Positions 19,349-64,000 of a stretch of 64,000 nt of DNA are shown one piece after another; position 1 is the first letter of the stretch, and each line of letters starts with the position of its first letter. Location: NCBI GenBank assembly GCA_017620915.1, contig JAFZSK010000014.1, positions 2,712 to 66,711 of the forward strand. The letters are read 5' to 3'. The DNA is from Clostridia bacterium. Its GTDB lineage: Bacteria > Bacillota > Clostridia > UBA1212 > UBA1255. The position numbers and the translations under genes are program-made. The notes under the pieces are model-generated. The model saw only the letters and a list, made by a program, of their open reading frames with translations. It searched no databases and was not told the origin of the DNA.

Positions 19349-19351
19349 GTG

Positions 19352-49382: not shown

Positions 49383-49440
49383 TCTCTGATCTCCGATCGA
49401 TCCGGCCATTTAAGCGGCTGAAATAGCTTAAACAATACGG

Positions 49441-49489
49441 GGCTGTTTGCAGACCTTGCTTTTGCGGGGCGAACAAACAGCCCTTTTGA
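49441..49489 (+). terminator. Intrinsic terminator hairpin (GGGCTGTTTG...CAAACAGCCC, then TTTTGA) immediately before the third paralog
   Basis: 10-bp stem, 23-nt loop, U-tract. The next start codon follows 10 nt later. Confidence 0.55.
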
Positions 49490-49498
49490 GGAAACGGT

Positions 49499-51955
49499 AT
49501 GAAAAAGATCATTATTTCAACGATATTGGTGCTGGCGATGTTATTGTCGCTGTGCAGCTTTGCCGGTGCCGCGGAAACGCCGTGGGAATACTGCCAGATG
49601 GATTTTGTACTGCTCTGGAACAAAGACGTGGCATTCATCGAGAACATGGGCAAGGGCAGTGATCTCGGCCAGATCAAACCGGCCGTTGACGCCGGGGCCA
49701 ACGGCATCTGCCTGATGGGCTGGTATTATCCGCCAACGACAGATGAGATCGTTGACTACGGTTATCAGGTGGATGACGGCGAGATCGTGTACGATTCCAT
49801 TGCCTGTATTTACGACGCGAATCTGGCGCCTGCGCTCGTGTCCTTTGGCGGCGACTGGGTCGATCGTGCCGACTATGCCCGTAACTTCAACGGCAACATC
49901 CCGATCCAGGAAGGCAGCCACACGGTCAAACTGATCGCCAGGTTCGCGGACGGTTCCACAAAAGCCATTTATCAGACCCGTTACGCCAACGACGATTCCG
50001 ACCTCGCGCTGAACAAGCCGGTCTATATCGAGCTGAAGAACGGTGTCCGCAACGGTTCGGGCTACTGGGACGATTCGTTCATCAACGACGGCTACAATCC
50101 CGTGCACAAGCCTGATGTGGTTCCGGATCCGGTGCCGCTGGGCTTTTATCCGATCGCCGCCGGACACGTGGTCGCGGATATATACATTGACCTCGAAGGC
50201 GAGTACGACCTGGAAAAAGTCACGCTCCACTCCCAGGGCTTCTATAGTGACTCCTTCCCGAACACATACAATGTGTATACGTCCAAAGACGGCGCCAGCT
50301 GGGATAAGATCGGCGGCGAAAGCGGACGGACCGGTGAAGTCGATACCGCCGAGCCCTTCGTGTATGCCACCACCAACCGTGCGCGCTTTATCAAAGTAGA
50401 GGTGCTCTCGGGCAATATCGTTGACGACAGCGGCTTCGAATACATGGGCATCGGCGAGATCGAGGCGTACGGCAAATACGCCGGCAAATCCACCGTGGTC
50501 AAACCCGGCTACATTCCTTACTCGAACTATTCGGGCGGCGTGGCGTTCGGCGACGCGGGCGGCAATTCCGCCTGGACCGGCTTCACTACCGGCACGCTTA
50601 CTTATAAATTTATGTTCAACACCGATGTGTCGTTCTACAAGATCGGCTTCCCGGTGGCGTGGGGCCTTGCGGGCACGCCGCTGAAGTTCGAGTTTAAGAA
50701 GGACGGGGAGGTCGTTGCCACCCAGACGTACACGGCAGTCGGCGACGCGCCGTTCACGCTGGACATCGGCAAGACGCTCGAAGCGGGCGAGTATGAGGTC
50801 ATTGTCACCATCACGGACGATGAGCTCCGGCCGGAAGGCGACCCGAACGCCGGCGCCTACCTGTATTACATGGTATTCGGCTACGCGACCGAAGGCGTGC
50901 TGGACAACACATACTTCGCCCAGGAGCGCGGCCAGATCGCCTTCGATCTATACTCGAACGAAACGAATGGCCAGGGCTTCATCAAGCGCGAATACAAGCA
51001 GCACGCCAACATTGACGCGGTCTCGCTGGACGGGGAGAGCAAGGGCAATGAGAACGGCCTGGCGATCACAGTAAGCGAGAACAGCCAGAACATCCTGGTG
51101 CACGGCTGGCTGGCGGCCAACTATCCGATCGAAAAGTACGGGTACAAAGTTGACGGCGGCGCGGCGGTGTACGACGACAGCTTCCTCAACCGGGATTACG
51201 GTACGGCGGAAGCGCCCAACGCGGACTATTTCGCGATCCTCGGCGTGGCGCAGGATCTGTACAGCGTCGCGGGCAACGGTTTCCGTGCCAACGTTCTTGT
51301 CCCCGTGACCGAAGGCGGCCACTCTGTGGAGATCGTGGCGATGGTCGCCGGTGAAGAGAAAGTGTTCTACACCTTCACGTACGCGCCGGAAGGCGTGCAT
51401 GTGCCGGTGACGCGCAGTTTTGACGCGGATACGGACAATCAGTACTTCGACGCTATCTTCTACAACAACGAGGACGCTCCCCGGGCCAACGGCAACGATG
51501 AAGTGGCGGCGCTGAAGACGCTCATTGACGGCTCGGCCGGTGACATCGAAGTGCTGGGTCTGTACGGCTGGTTCTCTTCCGATTCCCCGATCGTGCAGTT
51601 TGGTTATGTGCTGGACGGCAGGGATCCGGTATTTGACGACGCGTTCACGGCGCCGCTAAACGCCGGGGAAGAGGAGGCGATCGGCGGTTCCAGAGCGGGC
51701 GGCAAGCGGTACCGCGTGAATATTGACGTCACCCGCCTGAACGACGGCAATACCCACGAGATCAAAGTCGTGGCAAAACTGGAAAACGGCGACACGGTCA
51801 TCTTCGACCGGGCCAACCGGGAAGCGATCGTATACTACAAGGCGCCCGGCGCTGAACTGCCCGGTACCGGTGACGCAGTGATCCTCGTGCTCGCCGCGAT
51901 CGCGCTGCTGGCAATGACCGCCGCAGTGATATTCATTCGCAAAAAAGCGCATTGA
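49499..51955 (+). CDS. Cell-wall-anchored surface protein paralog (818 aa): F5/8 type C-like domain, shared C-terminal module, canonical LPGTG anchor
   Basis: Signal peptide MKKIIISTILVLAMLLSLCSFAGA. F5/8-C-like block around residues 165-320. The C-terminal 150 aa are about 75% identical to protein 1. Ends ...LPGTGDAVILVLAAIALLAMTAAVIFIRKKAH. Confidence 0.8.
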   Translation: MKKIIISTILVLAMLLSLCSFAGAAETPWEYCQMDFVLLWNKDVAFIENMGKGSDLGQIKPAVDAGANGICLMGWYYPPTTDEIVDYGYQVDDGEIVYDSIACIYDANLAPALVSFGGDWVDRADYARNFNGNIPIQEGSHTVKLIARFADGSTKAIYQTRYANDDSDLALNKPVYIELKNGVRNGSGYWDDSFINDGYNPVHKPDVVPDPVPLGFYPIAAGHVVADIYIDLEGEYDLEKVTLHSQGFYSDSFPNTYNVYTSKDGASWDKIGGESGRTGEVDTAEPFVYATTNRARFIKVEVLSGNIVDDSGFEYMGIGEIEAYGKYAGKSTVVKPGYIPYSNYSGGVAFGDAGGNSAWTGFTTGTLTYKFMFNTDVSFYKIGFPVAWGLAGTPLKFEFKKDGEVVATQTYTAVGDAPFTLDIGKTLEAGEYEVIVTITDDELRPEGDPNAGAYLYYMVFGYATEGVLDNTYFAQERGQIAFDLYSNETNGQGFIKREYKQHANIDAVSLDGESKGNENGLAITVSENSQNILVHGWLAANYPIEKYGYKVDGGAAVYDDSFLNRDYGTAEAPNADYFAILGVAQDLYSVAGNGFRANVLVPVTEGGHSVEIVAMVAGEEKVFYTFTYAPEGVHVPVTRSFDADTDNQYFDAIFYNNEDAPRANGNDEVAALKTLIDGSAGDIEVLGLYGWFSSDSPIVQFGYVLDGRDPVFDDAFTAPLNAGEEEAIGGSRAGGKRYRVNIDVTRLNDGNTHEIKVVAKLENGDTVIFDRANREAIVYYKAPGAELPGTGDAVILVLAAIALLAMTAAVIFIRKKAH

Positions 51956-52039
51956 GATTGCTGTTGAATGAGGACTTGCGCATAAACTCGCAGCTGTTGC
52001 AGTTCATGAGCCGTGTCTTCAAAAAAGTAAGAGGAATTT

Positions 52040-52215
52040 GTTCAAACGAGCGCGTTTGTCTTACATTCTCGCTCATTTGACCGGGTAATCAACGTGACTG
52101 ATAAGACAAGATTTCTCAAATGAGTGATCTTGTCTTATTTTGTTCTCTCCAGGTCTTCAAAATGTAAGACAATATGCCTCAAACGGGCAAAAATGTCTTA
52201 CTTTTCGCCTTTTGG
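52040..52215. repeat. Tandem palindromic repeat family E: 3 copies of about 65 bp with (G)TAAGACAA-N22-TTGTCTTA(C)
   Basis: Example: GATAAGACAAGATTTCTCAAATGAGTGATCTTGTCTTAT. Lies upstream of ldh. Confidence 0.8.
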
Positions 52216-52409
52216 GCAGGTCACAGACGCAGCCGACCTTTGCCATTTGCCCTTTGTCATTTACCCCCTGTCCCTTGCCCTTTGCCCCTTGCGCCAAGGC
52301 TGTCTTCGTGGTACAATACTATGAGGTGCTTTGGCCGCAGGCCCGAACGCCGCCAAATGGCAATTTGCAAACAGCAAGTTGCATGAAATAATTCAGAAGG
52401 TGAAATTCA

Positions 52410-53357
52410 ATGGGAAGAAAGATCACAGTTATTGGCGCCGGCAGCGTGGGATCCACGATAACGTATACGCTGGCGGTGGATAAAATTGCCTCCGAGATCG
52501 TGATGATCGACGTCAACGAAGAAAAAGCGCGCGGCGAAGCGATGGACATACTGCAGGGCATGCCGTTCAGCTCGCCGACGAATATATATGCGGGCACGTA
52601 CAGCGATGCCGCGGGATCGGATATTGTCATCATCACCTGCGGGCTGCCGCGGAAGGCGGGGCAGTCGCGTATTGACCTCGCGCAGACCAACGTCAACATT
52701 ATAAAGCAGATCGCGCCGGAGATCGCGAAGTACGCGCCGGATGCGATATATATCATTGTCAGCAATCCCGTTGACATCCTGACGTACGTGTTCATGCGCG
52801 TGTCCGGCATCCCCGAAAAGCACATCATCGGTTCCGGCACGATCCTGGACACCTCGCGCCTGCGTTCGCGCATTGCCGAATATGTGGGCATCAGCGAGCA
52901 GAACATCCACGCGTACGTGCTGGGCGAACACGGCGACAGTTCGTTCGTGCCCTGGTCCATCGCGCAGGTGGGGTGCGTCAATCTGTTCGATTACCGCAAA
53001 GATTTCCACTTTTACGATTCGCTGCGGCCTGAACTGGACACCGACGAGATCGAGGAGTACATCAAGACCTCCGGCGGCCAGATCATCAAGCGCAAGGGGG
53101 CCACGTTCTACGCCGTCTCCATTTCCGTCTGCCACATCGTCAAATGCCTGCTGGGCAGCGCCAACAACGCGCTCACCGTGTCGTCAATGATGCACGGCGA
53201 ATACGACATCGAAGACGTTTGCCTGAGCATCCCGTTTATTATCGGGCCTCACGGCGTGTGCGGCCATCTGCTGCCCAACCTTACCGGGCCGGAGATCGGC
53301 AAGCTGCAGAACAGCGCCAACGTGCTCAAAAACGTTATCCGCCAGGTCAATATCTGA
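52410..53357 (+). CDS. ldh: L-lactate dehydrogenase (NAD-dependent LDH/MDH family)
   Basis: KITVIGAGSVGSTITYTL...DIVIITCGLPRKAGQSRIDL...IVSNPVDILTYV...GSGTILDTSRLR..HAYVLGEHGDS. Canonical LDH motifs, including the active-site region. Confidence 0.9.
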   Translation: MGRKITVIGAGSVGSTITYTLAVDKIASEIVMIDVNEEKARGEAMDILQGMPFSSPTNIYAGTYSDAAGSDIVIITCGLPRKAGQSRIDLAQTNVNIIKQIAPEIAKYAPDAIYIIVSNPVDILTYVFMRVSGIPEKHIIGSGTILDTSRLRSRIAEYVGISEQNIHAYVLGEHGDSSFVPWSIAQVGCVNLFDYRKDFHFYDSLRPELDTDEIEEYIKTSGGQIIKRKGATFYAVSISVCHIVKCLLGSANNALTVSSMMHGEYDIEDVCLSIPFIIGPHGVCGHLLPNLTGPEIGKLQNSANVLKNVIRQVNI

Positions 53358-53432
53358 GCGCGCCGGAATCGCGCGCAAACACGGGCCGTCGCCCAGACCG
53401 ACTGCCCGTTTGTTATGTAAGGAGAGAAACTG

Positions 53433-54236
53433 ATGAATTACAGCTATTATCCGGGCTGCACGCTGAAGACCAAAGCGCAGGAGCTGGATCGTTACGGCCG
53501 CGAGAGCGCGAAGGCGCTGGGCATCGGGCTGGAGGAAATTGACGACTGGCAGTGCTGCGGCGCCGTGTATCCCATGGTGCGGGACGAGATCGCTACGAAA
53601 TTGTCCGCGGTGCGCACGCTGATGGCGGCGCGGGACAAAGGGCAGAAGCTCGTCACGCTGTGTTCGGCGTGCCATAACGTGTTGACGCGGGTCAACAACG
53701 ACATGCGCACCGATGAATACATCCGCTCCCGGGCGAACAATTATCTTGACCCCGCGGTGCCCTACGCCGGCGAGACGCAGGTGATCCACTACCTGCAGCT
53801 GCTGCGGGACGAACTGGGCTTCGAGCAGCTGGCCCAAGCGGTCAAAAACCCGCTCAAAGGACGCAAGATCGGCGCGTACTACGGCTGCCTGCTGCTGCGC
53901 CCCTCTAAAGTGATGGCCTTCGACGACCCCGAAAATCCGCGTATCATCGAAGATTTCGTGCGCGCGCTGGGCGGGACGCCGGTGGTATACGGCATGCGCA
54001 ACGAATGCTGCGGCGCGTATGTGACGCTGAAGGACGAGGCGCAGGCGCGGGTCAACGTGGAGCGCATCATCGCCAACGCCCGCAGCCAGGGCGCGGAAGA
54101 AATTATCACCGCGTGCCCGCTGTGCATGTACAATCTTAAAAAGCATCAGGACGGCAGCATGCCGGTGCGCTACATTACCGAGCTGCTGTACGAGGCGCTG
54201 GGGCTGAAGGAGGCGGACGCAAATGCAGATGAGTGA
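53433..54236 (+). CDS. hdrB: Heterodisulfide-reductase subunit B-like protein (two CCG domains)
   Basis: MNYSYYPGCTL...WQCCGAVYPM and ...YYGCLLLRP...NECCGAYV...ITACPLCMYNL: duplicated Cys-rich CCG motifs. Confidence 0.85.
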   Translation: MNYSYYPGCTLKTKAQELDRYGRESAKALGIGLEEIDDWQCCGAVYPMVRDEIATKLSAVRTLMAARDKGQKLVTLCSACHNVLTRVNNDMRTDEYIRSRANNYLDPAVPYAGETQVIHYLQLLRDELGFEQLAQAVKNPLKGRKIGAYYGCLLLRPSKVMAFDDPENPRIIEDFVRALGGTPVVYGMRNECCGAYVTLKDEAQARVNVERIIANARSQGAEEIITACPLCMYNLKKHQDGSMPVRYITELLYEALGLKEADANADE

Positions 54237-54621
54237 GAAGGACGTTGCCGCCCTCGTAAAAGAGATCAGCGGTTCCGACGTGAAAAAATGCATGAAATGC
54301 GGCAAGTGCTCCGCCACCTGTCCCGCGTACGGCGAGATGCGGTTCCATCCGCATCAGTTCGTGGCGATGGTTGCCCGCGGCCGGGTGGAAGAGCTGCTGA
54401 AGGACCCCACCGTGACGCGTTGCCTCAGCTGTTTCGCGTGCGTGGAACGTTGTCCCCGGGGCGTGGAACCCGCCAATGTGGTGGCGGCAATACGCGTACT
54501 GGCGGAACGTGAGCAGGAGGGCAACAACTTCTCTCCCGCCGACGTGCCGAAACTGCTCTCGCAGGACCCGGAGATCCCACAGCAGGCGCTGGTCAGCGCC
54601 TTCCGCAAGTACAGAAAATGA
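54223..54621 (+). CDS. hdrC: Heterodisulfide-reductase subunit C-like 2x[4Fe-4S] protein
   Basis: CMKCGKCSATCP and CLSCFACVERCP ferredoxin motifs. Overlaps the hdrB stop. Confidence 0.85.
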   Translation: MQMSEKDVAALVKEISGSDVKKCMKCGKCSATCPAYGEMRFHPHQFVAMVARGRVEELLKDPTVTRCLSCFACVERCPRGVEPANVVAAIRVLAEREQEGNNFSPADVPKLLSQDPEIPQQALVSAFRKYRK

Positions 54622-54641
54622 GATGGGCGGTGTGATCAGAT

Positions 54642-56627
54642 TTGCATAAGATCGGAGTATTTGTTTGCTGGTGCGGCAGCAATATAGCCGCGACTGTGGA
54701 CGTTGACCGAGTGGTGGCGGAGGCCAAAGTGCAGCCCGGCGTGGTGTTCGCGCAGGACTACCAGTATATGTGCTCGGAAGCGGGCCAGAATATAATAAAA
54801 GACGCAATTAAAACGCATGGACTCACAGGCGTGGTGGTGTGCTCCTGCTCGCCGCGCATGCACGAAGCGACGTTCCGCAAAGCCGCGGCGCAGGCCGGGC
54901 TCAACCCGTTCATGGTGGAGATCGCCAACATCCGCGAGCACTGTTCCTGGATCCACAAGGACAAGGAAGAAGGCACGGAGAAGGCGTGCGTGCTGATGCG
55001 GGCGGCGGTGGCAAAAGTAACCCTGAACGCGCCCCTGAAAGCGGGGGAGAGCAAAGTCGTGAAACGCGCGCTGGTGATCGGCGGCGGTATCGCGGGCATA
55101 CAGACGGCGCTGGATATTGCCGACGCCGGATTCCCGGTGGATATCGTGGAAAAGAACGCCACCATCGGCGGGCGCATGGCGCAGCTGGATAAAACGTTCC
55201 CGACGCTGGACTGCTCGTCGTGCATATTGACCCCGAAAATGGTGGAGGCCAAGGCCAACGAGAACATCCGCCTCATTACCTACGCGGAAGTGGAGGAAGT
55301 GAGCGGCTTCGTGGGCAGCTTCAAAGCGAAGATCCGCAAAAAAGCGCGCTTCGTCAAAGAAGACGTCTGCACCGGCTGCGGCGTGTGCATGTCCAAATGC
55401 CCCTCCAAGAAGGGCCTCAACGAGTTCAACATGGGGCTGAACAACCGTTCCGCCATCTATATCCCGTTCGCCCAGGCGATCCCCAACGTGGCGGTGATCG
55501 ATAAAGAGCAGTGCATCAAGCTGAAGACCGGCAAATGCGGGCTGTGCCAGAAAGTGTGCACCGCGGGGGCGATCGACTACACCCAGCAGGACGAGTTCAT
55601 CGAAGAAGAGTACGGCGCGATCGTGATGGCAACGGGGTTCCGGCCCATTGACGCCTCAAAATTCGACGAGTATTCCTACTCCACCTGCAAGGACGTTGTC
55701 ACCTCGCTGGAACTGGAGCGCATAATGAACGCGGCGGGACCTACCGGCGGCGTACTGCTCCGGCCTTCCGACGGCAAGCATCCGCACTCCATCGTATTTA
55801 TCCAGTGCGTGGGCTCCCGCGACGTTTCCGGCCGCGGCAAACCCTACTGCTCCAAGATCTGCTGCATGTACACCGCCAAGCACGCCATGCTGATCCGGGA
55901 CAAATATCCGGACGTGGAAGTGCATGTGTTCTACATTGACGTCCGCACGCCGGGCAAGAACTTCGACGAGTTCTACCGCAGGGCGGCGGAGCAGTACGAC
56001 GTTGACTACATCAAAGGCCAGGTGGGCAAAGTATACGAGGAGAACGGGCAGCTGGTGGTGCGGGGCGTTGACCTCATCTCCAACGAACAGATCGTGCTGA
56101 ACGCCGACATGGTAGTGCTGGCCACGGCCATCGAGCCGGATCCCACCGCGCGCAAAGTGGCCAACATGCTCACCGCCAGCATCGACACCAACGATTTCAT
56201 CACCGAAGCGCACCCCAAACTGCGCCCGGTGGAGAGCCCCACGGCGGGCATCTTCCTGTCCGGCGTGTGCCAGGGCCCGAAAGACATACCCGAGACCGTG
56301 TCCCAGGCGGGCGCGGCGGCCTCCAAGGTCATCGGTCTGCTGGCGAAGGACAAACTCACAACAAACCCGTGCGTGGCTCATTCCGACGAGCTTTTGTGCA
56401 ACGGCTGCTCGTGCTGCGAAAAAGTCTGCCCGTACAGCGCGATCTCCTATGAGACCAAACTGATCAACGACCACGGCGTCAAAGAGACCCGGCGCGTGGC
56501 GATGGTCAACGAAGCGCTCTGCCAGGGCTGCGGCGCCTGCACGGTGGTGTGCCCCTCCGGCGCTATGGACCTCAAGGGCTTCTCGAATAAACAGATCATG
56601 GCGGAGGTGGATGCGATATGTCTGTAA
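54642..56627 (+). CDS. hdrA: Heterodisulfide-reductase subunit A-like FAD/FeS flavoprotein (candidate bifurcating subunit); TTG start
   Basis: KIGVFVCWCGSNI N-terminal Cys cluster. FAD-binding VIGGGIAGIQTALDIADAG. An inserted ferredoxin domain (CTGCGVCMSKCP, CGLCQKVCTAGA) and C-terminal CxGCxxCxxxCP motifs. Confidence 0.85.
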   Translation: MHKIGVFVCWCGSNIAATVDVDRVVAEAKVQPGVVFAQDYQYMCSEAGQNIIKDAIKTHGLTGVVVCSCSPRMHEATFRKAAAQAGLNPFMVEIANIREHCSWIHKDKEEGTEKACVLMRAAVAKVTLNAPLKAGESKVVKRALVIGGGIAGIQTALDIADAGFPVDIVEKNATIGGRMAQLDKTFPTLDCSSCILTPKMVEAKANENIRLITYAEVEEVSGFVGSFKAKIRKKARFVKEDVCTGCGVCMSKCPSKKGLNEFNMGLNNRSAIYIPFAQAIPNVAVIDKEQCIKLKTGKCGLCQKVCTAGAIDYTQQDEFIEEEYGAIVMATGFRPIDASKFDEYSYSTCKDVVTSLELERIMNAAGPTGGVLLRPSDGKHPHSIVFIQCVGSRDVSGRGKPYCSKICCMYTAKHAMLIRDKYPDVEVHVFYIDVRTPGKNFDEFYRRAAEQYDVDYIKGQVGKVYEENGQLVVRGVDLISNEQIVLNADMVVLATAIEPDPTARKVANMLTASIDTNDFITEAHPKLRPVESPTAGIFLSGVCQGPKDIPETVSQAGAAASKVIGLLAKDKLTTNPCVAHSDELLCNGCSCCEKVCPYSAISYETKLINDHGVKETRRVAMVNEALCQGCGACTVVCPSGAMDLKGFSNKQIMAEVDAICL

Positions 56628-57055
56628 ACGCTGATTGGAAGCCGCGTATCGTGGCATTCTGCTGCAACTGGTGCAGTTACGCCGGCGCGGATCTGGCGGG
56701 TTCCTCCCGTCTCGCGTATCCCGCGGACGTGAAGATCATCCGCGAGCCCTGCTCCTGCCGGGTCAATCCCATGTTCATCCTCAAAGCCTTCGAACGCGGC
56801 GCGGACGGCGTGATCCTGTGCGGCTGTCACCCCGGCGACTGCCACTACAGCACGGGCAACTACTACACCCGCCGCCGTATGGCGCTCCTGTTCAGCATGC
56901 TGGACTACATCGGTGTGGAACGCGGCCGCACCCGCGTGGAGTGGGTCTCCGCCGCGGAAGGCGCCAAATTCTCCCGCGTCATGAACGACTTCGTGGCGCA
57001 GATCCGCGAACTGGGCGAAAATGTGAAAGTAGGTGACCTGAGATGCAAAGAGTGA
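56618..57055 (+). CDS. mvhD: MvhD/FlxD-type hydrogenase delta-subunit-like [2Fe-2S] protein
   Basis: RIVAFCCNWCSYAGADLAG...REPCSCRVNP...VILCGCHPGDCHY: the characteristic MvhD cysteine pattern. Confidence 0.8.
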   Translation: MSVNADWKPRIVAFCCNWCSYAGADLAGSSRLAYPADVKIIREPCSCRVNPMFILKAFERGADGVILCGCHPGDCHYSTGNYYTRRRMALLFSMLDYIGVERGRTRVEWVSAAEGAKFSRVMNDFVAQIRELGENVKVGDLRCKE

Positions 57056-58041
57056 GCGAGAGAGTGATCGCACGCGCCCGCGAGCTGATGCGCGAGGGTA
57101 CCGTCAATAAGGTTGCCGGCTGGAAGGCAGGCGAGTTTTTCTACGACTGCGCGCCGTACGTGTTCGAGAGCGAGGAATCGCTTAAAGATCTGGTATACGA
57201 CCGCTTCTGCGCCGCCAACCTCAGCAAATACATGATCAAAAACAGCGTTGCCGCCGGTGCGGAAGGCGGTAAAGTGCTGGTGCTGCTGAAGCCGTGCGAC
57301 ACGTACAGCTTCAACCAGCTGCTCACAGAACATCGCATTGCCCGCGAGAACGTATACGTTCTGGGCGTGGGGTGCGAGGGGATGTGCGACATTGACCGCA
57401 TCCGCGAAAAAGGCTTTAAAGGCATCACCGGCGTGGATGAGAACGCGGACGGCAAAACGCTCACCGTGCACACGCTGTACGGCGACGGCGAGGTCGCCAT
57501 CGACGACGTGCTGGTCAATAAATGTGAGTTCTGCAAAGGCAAGGCTCACATGATCTTTGACGAACTGATCTCGGACAACGAAGACGAAGGCCCCCGCGGC
57601 GACCGCTTCGCCGGCGTGCGGGAACTGGAGGCAATGTCTCCCGCGGACCGCTTTGCGTTCTGGCAGTCGGAGCTGTCCAAATGCATCCGCTGCAACGCGT
57701 GCCGCAACGCCTGTCCCGCCTGCTCCTGCCGCAAGTGCGTGTTCGACAACGACGCTTCCGGCATCGCGTCTAAGGCCAACACCGACAGCTTCGAAGAGAA
57801 AATGTTCCACATCATCCGCGCTTTCCACGTAGCCGGACGCTGCACGGACTGCGGCGAGTGCACGCGCGTATGTCCGCAGGGCATACCGCTCCACCTGTTC
57901 AACCGCAAATATATAAAAGACATCAACGAATTCTACGGCGAGTATGCCGCCGGCGCGGAAGCGGGACAGCGCGGGCCGCTGATCAACTATACCGTTGACG
58001 ACATCGAGCCTGCGGCTGTGAGCGACAAAGGAGGGAACTGA
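57043..58041 (+). CDS. FrhB/FdhB-like iron-sulfur protein with two [4Fe-4S] motifs (Flx-type electron-transfer subunit)
   Basis: N-terminal about 200-aa F420-hydrogenase-beta-like domain (..LLKPCDTYSFNQL..VLGVGCEGMCDI..). C-terminal CIRCNACRNACPACSC and CTDCGECTRVCP. Confidence 0.55.
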   Translation: MQRVSERVIARARELMREGTVNKVAGWKAGEFFYDCAPYVFESEESLKDLVYDRFCAANLSKYMIKNSVAAGAEGGKVLVLLKPCDTYSFNQLLTEHRIARENVYVLGVGCEGMCDIDRIREKGFKGITGVDENADGKTLTVHTLYGDGEVAIDDVLVNKCEFCKGKAHMIFDELISDNEDEGPRGDRFAGVRELEAMSPADRFAFWQSELSKCIRCNACRNACPACSCRKCVFDNDASGIASKANTDSFEEKMFHIIRAFHVAGRCTDCGECTRVCPQGIPLHLFNRKYIKDINEFYGEYAAGAEAGQRGPLINYTVDDIEPAAVSDKGGN

Positions 58042-58043
58042 CC

Positions 58044-59096
58044 ATGGCAATGAAGAAGATAGCATTGACCCAATTGGAACAGTTGTTCGCCGCGCTGTCG
58101 CTCACCCGTAAAGTGTATCTCCCCGTGGAGAAAGCGGGTCAATACGACTACGCCCCCTGGCAGCCCGGTCTCACATACCATCCTGAAGTGCTGCACACGG
58201 TCAAAAGCGCCAAGAGCGTATTCTTCCCCCAGAGCGAGGACCTGATCCGCTACAAGCGCGCGGGCCTCAGCCTGGAGATCAGTCAGCAGGCGCCGGAGGA
58301 CGAGGAATTCGTAGTGTTCGGCGTGCACGCATGCGACGTTGCCGGCTTTGAAGTGCTGGACCGGGTGTTCCTGTCGGAGCCTGTGGACAGCTATTATAAG
58401 GCGCGGCGGGAGCACGGCACCGTGTTCTCCGTGATGTGCGCAAAGCCCGAAGAGACGTGCTTCTGCGGTACGTTCGGGATTGATGCCGAAGCCCCCGGCG
58501 GCGACGTGCAGTCGTGGCTCGCGGACGGCGTGCTGTATATGGAGGCGCTCACCGAAAAGGGTGAGGCGCTGCTGGCGGCGGTATCGGGGATCGTCAGCGA
58601 GGTTGACGACGCCGGCACGCAGGCGGCAGCGGAGACCCGGGCGGCGCACAAAGCAATAATGGAAAGATTGCCCCTGGCGGACCTCACCACCGACGGCTTC
58701 GGCGCGGACGCGGAACTGCTCCCGCTGTTCAACCGGCCCGAGTGGAAAGAACTGGCTTCGTCGTGCCTGGGCTGCGGCACCTGCACTTATGTGTGTCCCA
58801 CCTGCCAGTGCTACGACATCCGCGAATATAACACGGGCAAGGAGATCCGCCGCTTCCGCGTCTGGGATTCCTGCATGTACTCCGACTTCACGATGATGGC
58901 GGCGGGCACGCCCCGGCCGGATCAGATGCAGCGGTTCCGTCAGCGCTTCATGCACAAACTGAAATACTATCCGGACAATTACGGCGGCGCGTTTTCGTGC
59001 GTTGGCTGCGGCCGCTGCCTGCAGAAGTGTCCAATCTCGATGAATATCGTTAAAGTTATGCGTAAACTGGGAGGTGCGAACCACAATGATAAATGA
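58044..59096 (+). CDS. AsrA-like (anaerobic sulfite reductase subunit A / sulfhydrogenase beta-like) 2x[4Fe-4S] protein
   Basis: 350 aa. CLGCGTCTYVCPTCQC and CVGCGRCLQKCP clusters. Architecture of the AsrA/HydB family. Confidence 0.65.
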   Translation: MAMKKIALTQLEQLFAALSLTRKVYLPVEKAGQYDYAPWQPGLTYHPEVLHTVKSAKSVFFPQSEDLIRYKRAGLSLEISQQAPEDEEFVVFGVHACDVAGFEVLDRVFLSEPVDSYYKARREHGTVFSVMCAKPEETCFCGTFGIDAEAPGGDVQSWLADGVLYMEALTEKGEALLAAVSGIVSEVDDAGTQAAAETRAAHKAIMERLPLADLTTDGFGADAELLPLFNRPEWKELASSCLGCGTCTYVCPTCQCYDIREYNTGKEIRRFRVWDSCMYSDFTMMAAGTPRPDQMQRFRQRFMHKLKYYPDNYGGAFSCVGCGRCLQKCPISMNIVKVMRKLGGANHNDK

Positions 59097-59913
59097 CACG
59101 CTTACGCCGCGGCTGGCGGTGGTGACGCAGATCCGCACCGAGACGCCCGACGTCAAGACCTTCCGCGTGGAAAGCGCGGACGGCACGCCGCTGTTCGACC
59201 ATATGCCGGGTCAATGCGCGATGCTCACGCTGCCCGGCGCAGGGGAGGCAATGTTCTCCATCACCTCTTCGCCTACAGTCGGCGGATATAAAGAGTTCAG
59301 CATCAAGCGGTGCGGGCGGCTGACCGACGCGCTGCACGCCATGGAGCCCGGCCAGCAGATCGGCATACGCGGCCCCTACGGCAAACCGTTCCCGGTGGAC
59401 ACGGAGTTCCGCGGAAAGAACCTGCTGTTTATTGCCGGCGGCATCGGCCTGGCGCCGCTGCACTCGGTGATCGAGTACGTGCGCGCGCACCGGGAAGCGT
59501 ACGGGCATATCGATATACTGTACGGCTCGCGGAGCGCCGCGGACCTCGTTGACCTCGACCGCATCCAGAACGAATGGATGCAGGAGCGGGATACCGGGGT
59601 GTATCTGACCATTGACCGCCCGCAGGACGGCTGGGACGGCCACGTGGGATTTGTCCCCGCGTACCTCAAAGAGCTGGCCTTTAAGCCCGACTGCACCGCC
59701 ATCATCTGCGGCCCGCCGATCATGATCAAATTCGTGCTGGCGGCGCTGATCGAAATGGGCTTCGACAAAACGCAGGTGTACACCACGCTGGAGCTCAAGA
59801 TGAAGTGCGGCGTGGGCAAATGCGGCCGCTGCAACATAGGATCGAAATTCGTGTGCAAAGACGGACCGGTGTTCCGCTGCGACGAGATCGACGAGCTGCC
59901 CAATGAGTATTGA
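59086..59913 (+). CDS. AsrB/FlxA/NfnA-like FAD- and NAD(P)H-binding oxidoreductase with C-terminal [2Fe-2S] (CGxGxCGxC) motif
   Basis: Ferredoxin-NADP-reductase-like fold (..RCGRLTDALH.., LLFIAGGIGLAPL) plus the C-terminal MKCGVGKCGRC cluster. ATG at 59086 with GGGAGGTG RBS, overlapping the upstream stop. Confidence 0.7.
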   Translation: MINDTLTPRLAVVTQIRTETPDVKTFRVESADGTPLFDHMPGQCAMLTLPGAGEAMFSITSSPTVGGYKEFSIKRCGRLTDALHAMEPGQQIGIRGPYGKPFPVDTEFRGKNLLFIAGGIGLAPLHSVIEYVRAHREAYGHIDILYGSRSAADLVDLDRIQNEWMQERDTGVYLTIDRPQDGWDGHVGFVPAYLKELAFKPDCTAIICGPPIMIKFVLAALIEMGFDKTQVYTTLELKMKCGVGKCGRCNIGSKFVCKDGPVFRCDEIDELPNEY

Positions 59914-59935
59914 CGCATCAGGAGGAGACGACAAC

Positions 59936-60610
59936 ATGGAAGAAATGGTAAACATATATTTTGCCGGCAAGTTATACACGGTGCCCGCGGGCATGACCAT
60001 CATGAACGCGCTGGAATACGCCGGGTACAAGCATATCCGCGGCTGCGGCTGCCGCGCGGGTTTCTGCGGCGCGTGCGCCACGATCTACCGGATCAAAGGG
60101 GAGCCGGAGCTGAAGTTCTGCCTGGCGTGCCAGACGCGGGTGCAGGAGGGAATGTACATTGCCAGCCTGCCGTTTTTCCCCACGCAGAAGCAGCGCTACG
60201 ATATCGAGGAAGTCAAACCGGATCAGAGCGTGATGATGGAGCTCTACCCCGAGATATACAGCTGCATCGGCTGCAACGCCTGCACCAAAGCGTGCCCCCA
60301 GGGCCTGCCGGTCATGCAGTACATCGCGTACGCCCAGCGGGGCGAGTATGAGAAGTGCGCAGAGGCGTCGTTCGACTGCATTGCCTGCGGCATGTGCTCG
60401 GCGCGCTGCCCGGCGGGGATCACGCACCCGATGGTGTCGCTGCTGGCGCGCCGGCTGAACGGCAAGTATATTGCTCCCCGGAGCGCGCATGTTGACAATC
60501 GCGTTCAGGAAGTACTGAACGGCGATTACGACGCGCTGATCAAAGAGCTGGCGGACAAGCCCGAAGCCGAGCTCCGCGACATGTACGACCACCGCGAGAT
60601 CGAGAAATAA
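59936..60610 (+). CDS. Succinate-dehydrogenase/fumarate-reductase iron-sulfur-subunit-like protein ([2Fe-2S] plant-ferredoxin domain plus two CxxCxxCxxxCP motifs)
   Basis: GCGCRAGFCGACAT...C (Cx4CxxC...C), then CIGCNACTKACP and CIACGMCSARCP. AGGAGGA RBS before the ATG at 59936. Confidence 0.7.
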   Translation: MEEMVNIYFAGKLYTVPAGMTIMNALEYAGYKHIRGCGCRAGFCGACATIYRIKGEPELKFCLACQTRVQEGMYIASLPFFPTQKQRYDIEEVKPDQSVMMELYPEIYSCIGCNACTKACPQGLPVMQYIAYAQRGEYEKCAEASFDCIACGMCSARCPAGITHPMVSLLARRLNGKYIAPRSAHVDNRVQEVLNGDYDALIKELADKPEAELRDMYDHREIEK

Positions 60611-60625
60611 GGGAGGAACGGTAAC

Positions 60626-62293
60626 ATGGCATTTGAGATCAAAGAACTGCCCGGTGTGTTCACCGGCGAAATGCTGGAATCCATAAAGAAAGTGGAAGCG
60701 ACCCGTCCGTCCCGTATCGGCGCGGAGCTCCGCCGCATGAGCGCGGAGGAAAAGGAAAAAGTGCTGCGGGACTTCCATCCCGACTATCGCGCGGACGGAT
60801 TTACCGTGCTGGAAGCGGGCCCCAACAAAGGCGAAAAAGTGCCCTCCGAACTGGCGGACCTGCTGGAAGGCCGGAGCCGCGTGCTGGGTGTGGCCGTTGA
60901 CCTGCAGCATCCGGATTACGATACCGACGTGCTGATCATCGGCGGCGGCGGCGCGGGCGCATCGGCGGCTATCGAAGCGAGCCAGGCGGGCGCGCGGGCA
61001 ATGATCGTCACCAAGCTCCGCCTCGGCGACGCCAACACCATGATGGCGGAAGGCGGCATACAGGCGGCGGACAAACCCAACGACTCACCGCTGATCCACT
61101 ACCTGGACGCGCTGGGCGGCGGTCACTTCACCAACAAACCCGAACTGCTCAAGAAGCTGGTCATGGAGGCGCCGGAGGCCATTCAGTGGCTGAACGGCCT
61201 GGGCGTCATGTTCGACAAAGACAAAGACGGCACGATGATCACCACCCACGGCGGCGGCACGTCCCGGAAACGCATGCACGCGTGCGCGGACTACTCCGGC
61301 GCGGAGATCATGCGGGTGCTGCGGGATGAGGTGCTGAACCGGGGGATAGAGGTCGTTGACTTCACCGCCGCCATCGAGCTGGTGCTGGACGATAAAGGTC
61401 AATGCGCCGGCGCCGTGCTCCGCAACATGGAGACCGGCGAGTTGCGCGTGGCGCGGGCGAAGGCGGTCATCATTGCCACCGGCGGCGCGGGGCGGCTGCA
61501 CTACCAGGGCTTCCCGACGTCAAACCATTACGGCGCCACGGCGGACGGCCTGGTGCTGGGCTACCGGGCGGGTGCGAAGCTGCTGTACGCGGATACGATC
61601 CAGTACCATCCGACGGGCGTTGCCTACCCGGCGCAGATGCTCGGCGCGCTGGTCACCGAGAAAGTGCGGTCCTGCGGGGCGCAGCTGGTCAACGTTGACG
61701 GCGTGGCCTTTATGAACCCCCTGGAGACCCGCGACGTGACCGCGGCCTCCATCATCCGCGAGTGCAAAGAGCGCGGCAAAGGCGTCCCCACGCCCATCGG
61801 CAGCGCGATCTGGCTGGATACCCCGATGATCGACGAGATCGGCGGCAAAGGCACCATCGAAAAACGCATCCCCGGCATGCTGCGCATGTACTCCAAATTC
61901 GGCATGGATATGCGCAAGACGCCTATATTGATATATCCCACGCTGCACTATCAGAACGGCGGCCTCGACGTGAGCGCGGACAGCATGACCGGCATCCCCG
62001 GCCTGTTCGTGGCGGGCGAGGCGGCGGGCGGCGTGCACGGACGCAACCGGCTGATGGGCAATTCCCTCCTGGACGTCATCGTATTCGGCCGCAACGCGGG
62101 CAAATACGCCGCGGCATACGTTCCGGGCGTGCGGCTCGGCGCGCCTACGCTCTCCCACGTGGAGAAGTTCGAGGCGGAACTCAAGGCTGCGGGCGTGGTG
62201 TCCAAAGTGGAATCGCCGCTGCTGCTGCCGGCGTACACCCACGGCAATCCCAAATTTGCCGGCACTGTGAAATGGGGGCATCCTGACTTATGA
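60626..62293 (+). CDS. Fumarate-reductase/succinate-dehydrogenase-type FAD flavoprotein (FrdA/SdhA/L-aspartate-oxidase/AprA superfamily) with an about 100-aa N-terminal extension
   Basis: FAD motif DVLIIGGGGAGASAAIEA. Active-site region ADTIQYHPTGVAYP...LVTEKVRSCGAQLVN aligns with the E. coli FrdA VQYHPTG...LMTEGCRGEGG (His-Pro-Thr and catalytic Arg retained). C-terminal SLLDVIVFGRNAG. AAGGGAGG RBS. Confidence 0.8.
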   Translation: MAFEIKELPGVFTGEMLESIKKVEATRPSRIGAELRRMSAEEKEKVLRDFHPDYRADGFTVLEAGPNKGEKVPSELADLLEGRSRVLGVAVDLQHPDYDTDVLIIGGGGAGASAAIEASQAGARAMIVTKLRLGDANTMMAEGGIQAADKPNDSPLIHYLDALGGGHFTNKPELLKKLVMEAPEAIQWLNGLGVMFDKDKDGTMITTHGGGTSRKRMHACADYSGAEIMRVLRDEVLNRGIEVVDFTAAIELVLDDKGQCAGAVLRNMETGELRVARAKAVIIATGGAGRLHYQGFPTSNHYGATADGLVLGYRAGAKLLYADTIQYHPTGVAYPAQMLGALVTEKVRSCGAQLVNVDGVAFMNPLETRDVTAASIIRECKERGKGVPTPIGSAIWLDTPMIDEIGGKGTIEKRIPGMLRMYSKFGMDMRKTPILIYPTLHYQNGGLDVSADSMTGIPGLFVAGEAAGGVHGRNRLMGNSLLDVIVFGRNAGKYAAAYVPGVRLGAPTLSHVEKFEAELKAAGVVSKVESPLLLPAYTHGNPKFAGTVKWGHPDL

Positions 62294-63597
62294 GCCTGTT
62301 CGGAGGAGTTATATCGGTCACCGGCATCGGGTTTCTGATGCTGTGCGTGCTGGCCGTTGCCGCCGTGGGCTACGCGCTCGGGCGGATCACGGTCAAAGGC
62401 GTATCGCTGGGCACGGCGGGGGTGTTCATTGTCGCCCTGGTGTTCGGCGCGCTGTGTTTTAAGTATATTGACACTCAGCTCGTGATGAAGGTGACAATGC
62501 CCGCGGCAGAGACCGCAGAGGCGGGGGCGGAAGCGGCGGCAACGACCGTCACCAAAAGCTACGCCTCGAACGCCCTAAAGATCATCGAGAACCTGGGCCT
62601 GATCCTGTTCGTGACCTCGGTGGGCTTCATTGCCGGTCCCAACTTTTTCAAGAACCTGAAAAAGAACTTCAAGTCGTACATTTTGCTGGGCCTGATCATT
62701 ATCCTGGCGGGCGCGGGAGCGTGCGCGGCGTGCTTCTTTATCGGCCGCGGCGGCGAGAGCGACTCCAAGGAGTTTGTGGCGATGCTGGTAGGGATATTGT
62801 CCGGTTCGCTCACCAGTACACCGGCGTTTTCCGCGGCGAAAGCGACGGTATTGCCCCAGTATGAAGACGCGGTAACCGTGGGCCACGGCATTGCGTACCT
62901 GTTCGGCGTGATCGGCGTGGTGCTGTTCGTGCAGCTGATCCCGAAGCTTACCAAAGCCAACATGGAAGAAGAACGCGCGAAACTGGCCGGTTCATCGGCC
63001 GCGGCTGAAGAGAAGACCGCCGAAAAAGCGCCCGAAAAGCTGTTTTCGCTGGACAAATTCGGCATCGGCATATTCGCGCTGGCGGCGGCGCTGGGCGTGA
63101 TCCTCGGCGCGATCCGCATACCGCTCAGCAGCAAAGGGCTTGACGGCACCACGTTCTCGCTGACGACTACCGGCGGCGCGCTGATCGTGTCGCTGCTGTT
63201 CGGGCATTTCCGCCGCATCGGCCGGCTGAACATCACGCCGGACAAAAAGACGCTGGAAGTGTTCCGGGAGACCGGGCTGATGCTGTTTCTGATCGGCGCG
63301 GGCATCGCGGGCGGCGCCAATTTCGTCAAATACTTCAAAGCCGTGTACTTCCTGTACGGGGTGGCAATGACGGTCATTCCGATGATCATCGGCTTCTTCT
63401 TCGCGAAATACGTGCTGAAGCTGAGCCTGCTCAACAACCTCGGGTCGATCACCGGCGGCATGACGTCGACGCCCGCGCTGGGCACGCTGATCAACGTGGC
63501 GGGGACGGATGACGTTGCCAGCGCGTATGCGGCAACGTATCCCATTGCCCTCATCGCGGTGGTACTGGCGTCGCAGTTCCTGGTGCTGCTGCTGTGA
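62290..63597 (+). CDS. AAE-family (aspartate:alanine exchanger / YidE-YbjL-like) putative dicarboxylate or amino-acid transporter, short form without TrkA-C domains
   Basis: N-terminal ...VAAVGYALGRITVKGVSLGTAGVFIVALVFG matches the AAE repeat signature, duplicated in the C-terminal half (...GIGIFALAAALGVILGAIRIP...). ATGA overlap with the upstream gene. Confidence 0.7.
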   Translation: MSLFGGVISVTGIGFLMLCVLAVAAVGYALGRITVKGVSLGTAGVFIVALVFGALCFKYIDTQLVMKVTMPAAETAEAGAEAAATTVTKSYASNALKIIENLGLILFVTSVGFIAGPNFFKNLKKNFKSYILLGLIIILAGAGACAACFFIGRGGESDSKEFVAMLVGILSGSLTSTPAFSAAKATVLPQYEDAVTVGHGIAYLFGVIGVVLFVQLIPKLTKANMEEERAKLAGSSAAAEEKTAEKAPEKLFSLDKFGIGIFALAAALGVILGAIRIPLSSKGLDGTTFSLTTTGGALIVSLLFGHFRRIGRLNITPDKKTLEVFRETGLMLFLIGAGIAGGANFVKYFKAVYFLYGVAMTVIPMIIGFFFAKYVLKLSLLNNLGSITGGMTSTPALGTLINVAGTDDVASAYAATYPIALIAVVLASQFLVLLL

Positions 63598-63718
63598 GCG
63601 GCAGGCGCGCTACTGATGCGTTTTGTCACTTGTTAACGAAAAAAGCATACGATATAATGAGTCCGGCAAAGGCAATTGCCGGACTTTTATTTGTAAGATT
63701 GCAGGGACGGAGGACCGG

Positions 63719-64000
63719 ATGGACACGGGGAGCAGGATCGCCGCACTGCGCGGGCAGGCGGGATTGACGCAGGAACAGCTGGCAGAGCGGCTGTTCGTAT
63801 CGCGCGAACTGATATCGAAGTGGGAGCACGGCGTGCGCCGTCCGGATCATCGCGAGGCGGCGGAACTCGCGCGCGTGCTGGGCGTCGGCATCTCCGAGAT
63901 CATTGACGAGACCGAACTTATAAAAGAAGAACTTGCCGAATGTATCCCGGAAGATTCCGGACCCGACGGGCAGGATATTGCCGGCATGCTGAATCTGTTT
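63719..64000 (+). CDS. XRE-family (Cro/C1-type HTH) transcriptional regulator, 3'-truncated by the window end
   Basis: IAALRGQAGLTQEQLAERLFVSRELISKWEHGVRRPD HTH_3 motif. GGAGG RBS. Confidence 0.7.
   Translation, partial: MDTGSRIAALRGQAGLTQEQLAERLFVSRELISKWEHGVRRPDHREAAELARVLGVGISEIIDETELIKEELAECIPEDSGPDGQDIAGMLNLF

Follow-up and report, generated by a model that had tools for sequence, protein, structure and literature searches.

The window analysed here, a stretch of 64,000 nucleotides from contig JAFZSK010000014.1 (assembly GCA_017620915.1), derives from an uncultured Clostridia bacterium of animal-gut metagenomes and carries, at positions 52410–63597 of its plus strand, 11 open reading frames (ORFs) that comprise a dehydrogenase gene, a core of nine genes for Hdr-, Flx-, and Frd-like redox proteins, and a transporter gene. 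The operon belongs to a predicted but uncharacterised kind, the core of which is proposed below to encode a soluble fumarate reductase that would couple NADH oxidation to the reduction of both fumarate and ferredoxin. The original prediction, made from the bare sequence, had placed all of these ORFs on the plus strand at the positions where they are found here; however, it had counted ten genes where there are 11 (1 + 9 + 1). It had also described the nine core genes as having overlapping stop and start codons, which is true of five junctions (overlaps of 10–23 nt), whereas the other three are gaps of 2, 15, and 20 nt. The 4-nt overlap (ATGA) between the stop codon of the flavoprotein gene and the start codon of the transporter gene is present as predicted, and 75 nt separate the first gene, a member of the lactate/malate dehydrogenase (LDH/MDH) family, from hdrB.

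Scans with Pfam and NCBIfam hidden Markov models uphold the assignments made earlier to HdrA/B/C, MvhD, an Flx/Asr-like input, an Frd-like pair, and an AAE transporter. The HdrB-like or SdhE-like protein (53433–54236) contains two complete CCG motifs (Pfam CCG, twice), i.e., sites for non-cubane 4Fe-4S clusters, with the spacing C-X31-CC-X34-CxxC at residues 9–80 and C-X39-CC-X34-CxxC at residues 152–231; its top NCBIfam match is SdhE (140 bits), followed by HdrB (130 bits), both under their cut-offs. The HdrC-like ferredoxin (54223–54621) carries two CxxCxxCxxxC motifs for two 4Fe-4S clusters and matches Fer4_8/Fer4_17 as well as the HdrC and QmoC models (~64 bits). HdrA (54642–56627), the FAD/iron–sulfur subunit, has TTG at 54642 as its sole in-frame start, scores 800 bits against NCBIfam HdrA2, and matches Methanothermococcus HdrA (5odc_A) at full length (residues 3–658 against 5–648, 693 bits). 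In methanogen Hdr, this subunit bears the bifurcating flavin, and 5odc contains a structurally characterised bifurcating HdrA. The adjoining MvhD/FlxD-like 2Fe-2S electron-transfer subunit (56618–57055) covers the full Pfam FlpD model (180 bits), with further matches to VhuD and to the C-terminal portion of the HdrA2 model.

The input side of the core is made up of three further proteins. The FlxC-like iron–sulfur protein (57043–58041) is related to FdhB/FrhB and contains two CxxCxxCxxxC motifs plus extra cysteines; among solved structures, it is closest to FdhB of the Fdh-Hdr complex (7bkb_E, E 8e-26), which it matches in both the N-terminal and the dicluster parts. The FlxB-like iron–sulfur protein (58044–59096), of the AsrA/sulfhydrogenase beta (AsrA/HydB-like) type, matches Pfam Fer4_22 (110 bits) together with the ShyB, HydB, and AsrA models (186, 158, and 129 bits, all under cut-off). 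The FlxA-like NAD(P)H:FAD oxidoreductase with a 2Fe-2S site, the putative point of electron input, occupies 59074–59913 (start GTG at 59074 or ATG at 59086) and combines FAD_binding_6, NAD_binding_1, and DHODB_Fe-S_bind domains, with scores of 165–213 bits against HydG/AsrB/PyrK-type models. By domain scans and cysteine motifs, all seven subunit types of FlxABCD-HdrABC are present, namely FlxA, FlxB, FlxC, FlxD (MvhD-like), HdrA, HdrB (CCG), and HdrC.

Two genes for an Frd-like pair follow. The iron–sulfur subunit (59903–60610, 235 aa) has a Fer2_4 and Fer4 dicluster architecture, in which a 2Fe-2S motif, CRAGFCGAC...C, precedes two four-cysteine 4Fe-4S motifs, CIGCNACTKAC(P) and CIACGMCSARC(P), and it matches both the N-terminus of TfrB and SdhB. 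Motif and domain scans of this protein revealed no CCG domain and no 3Fe-4S motif, the second dicluster motif having four cysteines; the 3Fe-4S cluster found in quinone-linked enzymes is thus predicted to be absent. In P0122 (727 aa), the FrdB-like and FrdA-like proteins occur as a natural one-polypeptide fusion, which supports their physical association.

The flavoprotein (60626–62293, 555 aa) matches FAD_binding_2 (241 bits, residues 101–481), and its best curated model is TfrA (NF004900), which it hits at 336 bits against a cut-off of 718, over model positions 6–421 of 546; other members of the subfamily also match TfrA best (322–350 bits). Its start at ATG 60626 is preceded by a GGGAGG Shine-Dalgarno sequence at a distance of 9 nt, which favours this longer, 555-aa form; public annotations of near-identical proteins begin 15 codons later (60671) and give 540 aa. 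As had been predicted, the FrdA-type catalytic residues are present. In an alignment with the reference sequences E. coli SdhA and M. smegmatis Sdh1, His328-Pro-Thr330, Thr344/Glu345, Arg369, His441, and Arg475 correspond to His242, Thr254/Glu255, Arg286, His354, and Arg399 of E. coli SdhA, and Arg348 is conserved alongside them. This set is invariant in the subfamily sets A1 and A2, except that Thr344 is invariant only in A2 and varies among more distant members. At the position of the histidine that binds FAD covalently in both references, the protein carries Asn137, and this asparagine is invariant in the subfamily. E. coli FrdA that has lost the covalent-FAD histidine no longer oxidises succinate but still reduces fumarate. 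The replacement argues for a non-covalent FAD and for a dedicated reductase.

The flavoprotein further possesses an N-terminal extension of ~95 aa with a conserved HPDY...GPNKGEKVP motif, and a Pfam scan gave no match to Succ_DH_flav_C, the C-terminal helical domain. An AlphaFold2 model of the protein reached a pLDDT of 71, with low confidence in the FAD-contacting loops; in a fold search with this model, SdhA/FrdA were most similar, over ~450 alignment columns of the 555-residue model, and the N-terminal extension was probably left unmatched. Identity with AprA or NadB was considered and rejected: there is no AprA-type match, and NadB models fall below the TfrA and Sdh models. The nearest sequence neighbours beyond the subfamily are TfrA-like proteins and actinobacterial SdhA, not NadB or AprA, and the clustering with AprA or L-aspartate oxidase accompanied by a loss of catalytic residues, which would have spoken against a fumarate reductase, is not what the alignment reveals. 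The protein appears to represent a distinct TfrA-related subfamily and is predicted to be a fumarate reductase.

The first gene (52410–53357; Pfam Ldh_1_N, Ldh_1_C) encodes an NAD-dependent 2-hydroxyacid dehydrogenase of the LDH family, which passes the NCBIfam cut-offs for L-LDH (TIGR01771) and MDH (NF004863) alike, and its best PDB matches carry LDH names. However, Arg81 aligns with Gln102 of LDH (GLPRKAGQSR against GVPQKPGETR of T. maritima LDH, 1a5z), and an arginine occupies this position in 44/44 homologues upstream of related clusters. In C. cellulolyticum, the LDH-like Ccel_0137, which also has Arg81, is the primary, experimentally supported malate dehydrogenase, while the Gln-bearing paralogue is the lactate dehydrogenase (PMC3268733). 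The first gene product is thus most likely a malate dehydrogenase that would supply malate from oxaloacetate. Lactate is unlikely as an input because arginine sits at the Gln102 position, and the suggestion that lactate oxidation through an ldh gene feeds the complex is abandoned on these grounds.

To place the operon among its relatives, one genome per species was scanned, by which at least 591 relatives were found; the best 80, each from a different species and 68–81% identical, were used for synteny by tblastn, with the proteins of the window as the only queries. They belong to Lachnospiraceae, Oscillospiraceae, Christensenellaceae, and other Clostridia and include Christensenella tenuis, Ohessyouella blattaphilus, and a metagenome-assembled genome of Ruminococcus flavefaciens; Pseudoclostridium thermosuccinogenes, discussed below, is not among them. 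The order hdrB-hdrC-hdrA-mvhD-flxC-flxB-flxA-frdB-frdA is collinear and on one strand in 55/55 loci with at least 7.4 kb upstream, an arrangement far beyond chance. An mdh gene of the Arg102 type lies upstream in 41/51 related loci, and a homologue of the AAE permease lies downstream in 36/54. Fumarase genes occur in the cluster in 39/41 related loci of at least 15.6 kb, in two alternative placements: a class II FumC (718 bits, above cut-off) between mdh and hdrB in 24 loci, and a two-subunit class I fumarase (alpha/beta) after the transporter in 15. Among the lines of evidence for fumarate as the substrate, this association with mdh, fumarase, and an exporter is the strongest; it further indicates that the operon encodes the branch from oxaloacetate to succinate. 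In one Lachnospiraceae-type clade (L001 1–15969, L002, and L003), the nine-gene core occurs without mdh or fumarase and is flanked by genes for DcuC, a protein of the adenylosuccinate lyase family (best model XcbD, 405 bits, under cut-off), a LysR regulator, DUF1847, and a TctBA transporter; this clade may obtain fumarate from a different, lyase-released source.

The flavoprotein might nevertheless act on another substrate, such as L-aspartate, in the manner of NadB and with an aspartate:alanine-type AAE exchanger at its side, or mesaconate, itaconate, urocanate, or another enoate or dicarboxylate. Such a role would be in line with the failure to reach any of the curated Frd, Sdh, and Tfr equivalog cut-offs, with a NadB score (TIGR00551, 271 bits, cut-off 452.75) that is only moderately lower than that for TfrA, with the inclusion of aspartate:alanine antiporters in the AAE family, and with the flanks of the L001–L003 clade, where an adenylosuccinate-lyase-family gene, DcuC, and TctAB stand in place of mdh and fumarase. 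However, the full set of residues for fumarate/succinate binding and proton transfer is invariant, linked mdh and fumarase genes are found in the vast majority of loci, and beyond the subfamily the closest sequences are TfrA-like or SdhA. Neither nadA nor nadC was present in six related loci with called genes that were examined, the 80 loci as a whole not having been searched for them. Enzymes of the Lyase_1 superfamily typically release fumarate, and given this chemistry the L001 variant also fits fumarate. Another substrate is accordingly regarded as very unlikely, and fumarate, as originally predicted, agrees with the intact catalytic residues, with TfrA as the nearest curated model, and with the fumarase genes of the long related loci.

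More distant relatives revealed other contexts for the Frd-like pair. On a metagenomic contig (L088 811–9771), four genes for a 2-oxoacid:ferredoxin oxidoreductase (korDABG) are followed by hdrA-mvhD-hdrC-hdrB-frdB-frdA, with a flavoprotein that is 55% identical, which constitutes a second Hdr-Frd association, in a different gene order, that recalls the Endoriftia cluster for the reductive tricarboxylic acid (rTCA) cycle. In abundant marine Gammaproteobacteria (L086 9366–12891), the same FrdB/FrdA pair occurs, 48% identical and likewise extended at the N-terminus. A NuoF-like gene (Complex1_51K, SLBB, NADH_4Fe-4S) comes next, the starts overlap, and neither Hdr/Flx nor a CCG protein is present; this trio is a candidate three-subunit soluble NADH:fumarate reductase. 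An Endoriftia-type cluster had been expected around this 48%-identical relative and was ruled out, the NuoF-like partner being found instead; the Gammaproteobacterial flavoprotein is indexed in 140 blocks of the genome collection. In Prochlorococcus sp. MIT 1201 (L087 10001–12357), a 43%-identical flavoprotein adjoins an FrdB-like 2Fe-2S/4Fe-4S gene with no obvious donor module, and the pair stands alone there and on one further contig; a member of this subfamily was unexpected in a picocyanobacterium. The pair looks like a portable module, and because its Gammaproteobacterial version adjoins a NuoF-like module without a CCG protein, it can apparently be fed through iron–sulfur chains by different donors.

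Based on these observations, we propose, with a probability of about 0.6, that the nine core proteins form one soluble bifurcating complex, in which 2 NADH + fumarate + oxidised ferredoxin would be converted to 2 NAD+ + succinate + reduced ferredoxin, within a branch that leads from oxaloacetate to exported succinate. The operon would constitute the cytoplasmic reductive branch of a fermenting Clostridia bacterium, in which oxaloacetate is reduced to malate by the first gene product and fumarate is made by a fumarase encoded elsewhere in the genome, its gene lying inside the cluster in most relatives. NADH would be oxidised at the FlxA-like flavoprotein, and the electrons would pass via the FlxB- and FlxC-like iron–sulfur proteins and MvhD/FlxD until they reach the HdrA flavin (FAD), at which the pair would be split. 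From there, the low-potential electron may exit through the ferredoxin domains of HdrA to ferredoxin, while the high-potential electron would travel through HdrC and the CCG clusters of HdrB to the FrdB-like protein (4Fe-4S, 4Fe-4S, 2Fe-2S), onward to the non-covalent FAD of the flavoprotein, and finally to fumarate; no free thiol or disulfide intermediate would be needed. The succinate would be exported by the AAE permease. The standard potentials are −320 mV for NADH, ~+33 mV for fumarate/succinate, and ~−450 mV for ferredoxin; the forward reaction is hence exergonic, and fumarate reduction can pay for ferredoxin reduction.

The same potentials bear on whether the complex might run in reverse, in which case succinate oxidation and reduced ferredoxin would together drive the reduction of NAD+ (confurcation) during growth on succinate. 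Although bifurcating enzymes are reversible in principle and AAE or DcuC transporters could import succinate, the mean of the succinate (+33 mV) and ferredoxin (~−450 mV) potentials, ~−210 mV, lies well above the −320 mV of NAD+/NADH, which renders this direction endergonic. Moreover, the covalent-FAD histidine for efficient succinate oxidation is replaced by the invariant asparagine, and the linked mdh and fumarase fit a reductive branch; reverse operation is thus scarcely credible.

How the high-potential electron reaches the flavoprotein is of particular interest. Direct wiring is favoured because methanogen TfrB behaves as a fusion of three separate proteins of the window, the FrdB-, HdrC-, and HdrB-like proteins matching TfrB positions 19–92, 130–220, and 412–487, respectively; because SdhE, the CCG partner of type E fumarate/succinate enzymes, tops the NCBIfam matches of the HdrB-like protein; and because FrdB and FrdA are fused in P0122 and the genes of L088 run from hdrA to frdA in the order given above. 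A single hard-wired supercomplex, in which the HdrB clusters relay the high-potential electron straight into the fumarate reductase without thiol chemistry, is therefore put forward tentatively, at somewhat less than even odds.

Alternatively, the operon may encode two enzymes linked by a diffusible thiol, with the FrdB/FrdA pair serving as a thiol:fumarate reductase that reoxidises it. This arrangement draws on the two complete CCG motifs that the protein shares with disulfide-reducing HdrB, on TfrA of thiol:fumarate reductase as the nearest curated family of the flavoprotein, and on published models that mention thiols or a DsrC-like carrier (PMC7282089, PMC11636981). However, the thiol-oxidising site of TfrAB is the CCG part of TfrB, which the FrdB-like protein here lacks, and separate thiol-reducing and thiol-oxidising sites are unavailable because the operon has one CCG protein only. 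Furthermore, no DsrC-, TusA-, or lipoate-carrier-like gene occurs in six related loci with called genes that were examined, the tblastn screen being unable to detect one; a NuoF-like partner devoid of any CCG domain works with this same FrdB/FrdA pair; and in type E enzymes, CCG proteins partner Frd/Sdh without thiol chemistry, SdhE being the top model match of the HdrB-like protein. A thiol shuttle is considered unlikely.

A further possibility is that the core forms a soluble NADH:fumarate oxidoreductase that does not bifurcate, the Hdr and Flx subunits being a long iron–sulfur wire and ferredoxin not being reduced; as an analogue, a five-subunit NADH-dependent fumarate reductase from Hydrogenobacter thermophilus was reportedly described by Miura et al. 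in 2008, as cited in PMC13147460. Electron transfer from NADH to fumarate is strongly exergonic by itself, a simple NuoF-like NADH module serves relatives of the FrdB/FrdA pair, and the operon contains no ferredoxin gene. However, HdrA is complete, including every cluster-binding region and the two ferredoxin domains, and is kept together with MvhD and the pair in 55/55 loci, and seven extra redox proteins would be hard to justify if a NuoF-like protein apparently suffices. In L088, the Hdr-Frd genes adjoin a 2-oxoacid:ferredoxin oxidoreductase, and the expression and H2 data on P. thermosuccinogenes were read by their authors as ferredoxin coupling (PMC7282089). The independent published proposal of the same mechanism for the same gene set, with co-regulation data, likewise counts in favour of bifurcation (PMC7282089). 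We find the non-bifurcating enzyme rather improbable, and the bifurcating transfer from NADH to fumarate and ferredoxin, as first suggested, is judged to be the most reasonable mechanism for these genes.

Several points weigh against a bifurcating fumarate-reducing complex. Bifurcation is deduced from homology to HdrA alone, and the operon status is drawn from gene spacing and consensus scans. The NCBIfam equivalog cut-offs are missed by all Hdr, Flx-like, and Frd subunits, which are divergent family members with an assumed cofactor chemistry; the FrdB-like protein resembles SdhB only weakly; and HdrB keeps both complete CCG motifs, which form the disulfide-reducing site in genuine Hdr. No fumarase was detected in the 64-kb window by tblastn with class I and class II queries. 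In the full-text literature searched, no purification, assay, or structure of such an enzyme was found, under this or another name, but rather genomic and transcriptomic proposals, and a 2018 review of flavin-based bifurcation does not include one.

The AAE-family permease (62290–63597, 435 aa) matches Pfam Asp-Al_Ex (194 bits) and the NCBIfam YidE/YbjL duplication domain (143 bits, above cut-off), while its AspT matches remain under cut-off. AspT/YidE/YbjL proteins consist of two Asp-Al_Ex repeats and a central TrkA_C (RCK) pair. The permease has the Asp-Al_Ex repeats but no TrkA_C match, and with 435 aa it is shorter than the 553–562 positions of the NCBIfam AspT/YidE-type models. It is a probable succinate exporter or C4-dicarboxylate exchanger.

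Regarding expression signals, a consensus scan located a promoter-like site (52364–52392, plus strand) 18 nt upstream of the first gene, with TTGCAA/TTTGCA, a 16–17-nt spacer, and TG-AATAAT; promoter-like sites upstream of the operon are no more frequent than in shuffled sequence and are weak evidence for a promoter. An intrinsic-terminator-like hairpin (63659–63686, plus strand), with an 11-bp stem followed by TTATTTGT, lies 62 nt downstream of the transporter stop codon and is the strongest terminator-like site in 51900–64000, and the consensus scan found no comparable plus-strand site within the operon. These signals, i.e., coupled or closely spaced genes and a sole strong terminator after the transporter, are compatible with one transcription unit. 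No Rfam family was detected in the leader or the operon at E ≤ 1, and thus no riboswitch or other known RNA. The GC content at third codon positions was 0.78–0.83 in five sampled plus-strand genes and 0.52–0.84 in four sampled overlapping antisense ORFs (three at 0.52–0.63, one at 0.84), without a clean separation. Antisense ORFs of more than 100 aa across the operon overlap plus-strand genes with strong family matches and are taken as high-GC artefacts.

The 450-nt gap upstream of the first gene contains three copies of a palindromic unit of ~40 nt (TAAGACA-N26-TGTCTTA) at 52028–52067, 52102–52141, and 52165–52204, spaced 74 and 63 nt apart. They may be operator sites, or the middle copy may be the terminator of the preceding gene; a role as conserved operators of the system was ruled out, the pattern being present in 0/85 related loci. 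Degenerate CCTTTGCC/CCCTTGCC repeats, in three 20-nt copies, are found at 52237–52291, just upstream of the putative operon promoter. At the other end, a near-consensus promoter-like site (TTGTTA-17-TATAAT, 63630–63658) abuts the terminator hairpin, and a gene of the XRE helix-turn-helix type begins at ~63720 and runs off the end of the window; in close relatives, by contrast, the transporter is followed by a class I fumarase. Farther upstream, three consecutive large plus-strand genes (42252–51955; 1023, 1258, and 818 aa) each encode an F5/8 type C (discoidin, carbohydrate-binding) domain with little else annotated, and their products are probably secreted, either to bind glycans or as glycoside hydrolases; genes of the GH3 and GH2 families are located at 19349–24745.

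The textbook quinone-dependent, membrane-bound fumarate reductase is absent from many rumen and gut Firmicutes that form succinate, and a soluble complex that transfers electrons from NADH to fumarate and generates reduced ferredoxin would, if confirmed, explain both their succinate formation and a gain of extra ATP or H2. Such a quinone-independent, energy-conserving "fumarate respiration", operating through reduced ferredoxin and Rnf, Ech, or hydrogenase, would benefit gut Clostridia that are free of menaquinone and cytochromes (Lachnospiraceae, Oscillospiraceae, Christensenellaceae, and succinate producers of the Ruminococcus flavefaciens type) and would bear on the hydrogen/methane balance of the rumen, on succinate/propionate cross-feeding in the gut, and on the engineering of succinate producers. 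If the supercomplex exists, it would be the first Hdr-class bifurcating enzyme with a carbon–carbon double bond as the exergonic acceptor, which poses the question to the Hdr field of whether CCG clusters can act as a pure electron relay, and the N-terminally extended FrdB/FrdA pair would be a portable unit that different lineages connect to Flx-Hdr, Kor-Hdr, or NuoF-like donors. Far from being peculiar to one thermophile, the gene set is shared more widely, its core being strictly conserved in at least 55 species-level genomes, and the published hypothesis can be tested in cultured hosts, e.g., Christensenella tenuis and Ruminococcus flavefaciens. The present analysis adds the reassignment of the first gene to MDH, the finding that the nine-gene core is both strictly conserved and widespread in gut Clostridia, the two different positions of the fumarase genes, the signatures of a non-covalent FAD and of four-cysteine clusters, and the reuse of FrdB/FrdA with other donors.

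Among known systems, the classical complex II enzymes (SdhAB/FrdAB) share the flavoprotein fold and active site, and the type E succinate:quinone reductase and Campylobacter MFR (SdhABE) share the combination of a flavoprotein, an iron–sulfur subunit, and a CCG-domain partner. However, the present system lacks a membrane anchor or quinone site, the covalent-FAD histidine, the 3Fe-4S motif, and Succ_DH_flav_C, and its scores lie far under the family cut-offs; no anchor gene is present in the operon, where the AAE permease is the only membrane protein. L-aspartate oxidase (NadB) differs in its setting, the neighbours here being Hdr/Flx genes, mdh, and a transporter, with fumarase in relatives.

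Methanogen TfrAB is similar in that TfrA is the closest curated model, TfrB joins an FrdB-like 2Fe-2S/4Fe-4S region to CCG, and the enzyme is soluble and quinone-independent. In contrast, the TfrA score of the window is under half of the cut-off (336 against 718), its flavoprotein lacks the C-terminal domain and has the added N-terminal extension, and its CCG motifs reside on a separate HdrB-like protein and are not fused to the iron–sulfur subunit. The predicted donor is NADH via HdrA, not coenzyme M and coenzyme B (CoM-SH/CoB-SH), which are not known in Clostridia. The methanogen complexes MvhAGD-HdrABC and Fdh-HdrABC (5odc, 7bkb) likewise contain a full-length HdrA, MvhD, HdrB, and HdrC, and the FlxC-like protein resembles FdhB; the donor in the window, however, is an NAD(P)H flavoprotein and not a hydrogenase or formate dehydrogenase, and the proposed high-potential acceptor is fumarate in place of CoM-S-S-CoB.

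The FlxABCD-HdrABC of Desulfovibrio vulgaris is an NADH dehydrogenase/heterodisulfide reductase that was proposed to bifurcate the electrons of NADH, according to Ramos et al. (2015) as cited in PMC7282089 and PMC5861303. By description, it contains the same seven module types; however, their order is inverted in the window (hdrBCA-flxDCBA), and the Desulfovibrio system, which is without an Frd-like pair, presumably reduces a protein disulfide (DsrC), whereas here the Frd pair is appended and no thiol carrier is linked. The rTCA clusters of Ca. Endoriftia persephone and Thioflavicoccus mobilis intersperse Hdr-Flx genes with tfrAB and korABCD (Rubin-Blum et al., PMC6315080; Mitchell et al., PMC11636981; PMC13147460), and bifurcation of NADH electrons to fumarate and ferredoxin has been proposed for these clusters, an idea that a 2026 survey still calls "suggested" (PMC13147460). 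They resemble the present operon in pairing Hdr-Flx with a soluble AB-type fumarate reductase, and L088 similarly has kor followed by Hdr-Frd genes; however, they serve an autotrophic rTCA cycle with 2-oxoglutarate:ferredoxin oxidoreductase and ATP-citrate lyase, whereas the window appears fermentative, with mdh, fumarase (in relatives), and an exporter.

The same gene set has been published as the "succinate operon" of Pseudoclostridium (Hungateiclostridium) thermosuccinogenes (CDQ83_RS03365–03315), in which a fumarate hydratase gene is joined by seven genes for Flx-Hdr, two for a fumarate reductase, and one for a putative succinate transporter (Koendjbiharie et al. 2020, PMC7282089). Its products were proposed to link the reduction of ferredoxin to that of fumarate by NADH (PMC7282089, citing the 2019 preprint 10.20944/preprints201912.0288.v1). 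Under CO2 limitation, its expression rises ~four-fold while Rnf goes down, and H2 abolishes succinate formation; the case is a hypothesis backed by transcriptomics and flux balance, not by enzymology (PMC7282089). Together with the tubeworm symbiont clusters, this operon contradicts the original prediction that the combination is not a described enzyme complex. Such an arrangement is common among gut Firmicutes and has figured in published proposals since 2019. The finding is real and biologically coherent, although its novelty was overstated and one gene was misread, and the hypothesis will not surprise a specialist. Compared by published description, the window has the same layout of seven, two, and one genes on one strand; however, the P. 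thermosuccinogenes operon starts with fumarate hydratase, whereas that of the window starts with mdh and has no fumarase within 64 kb.

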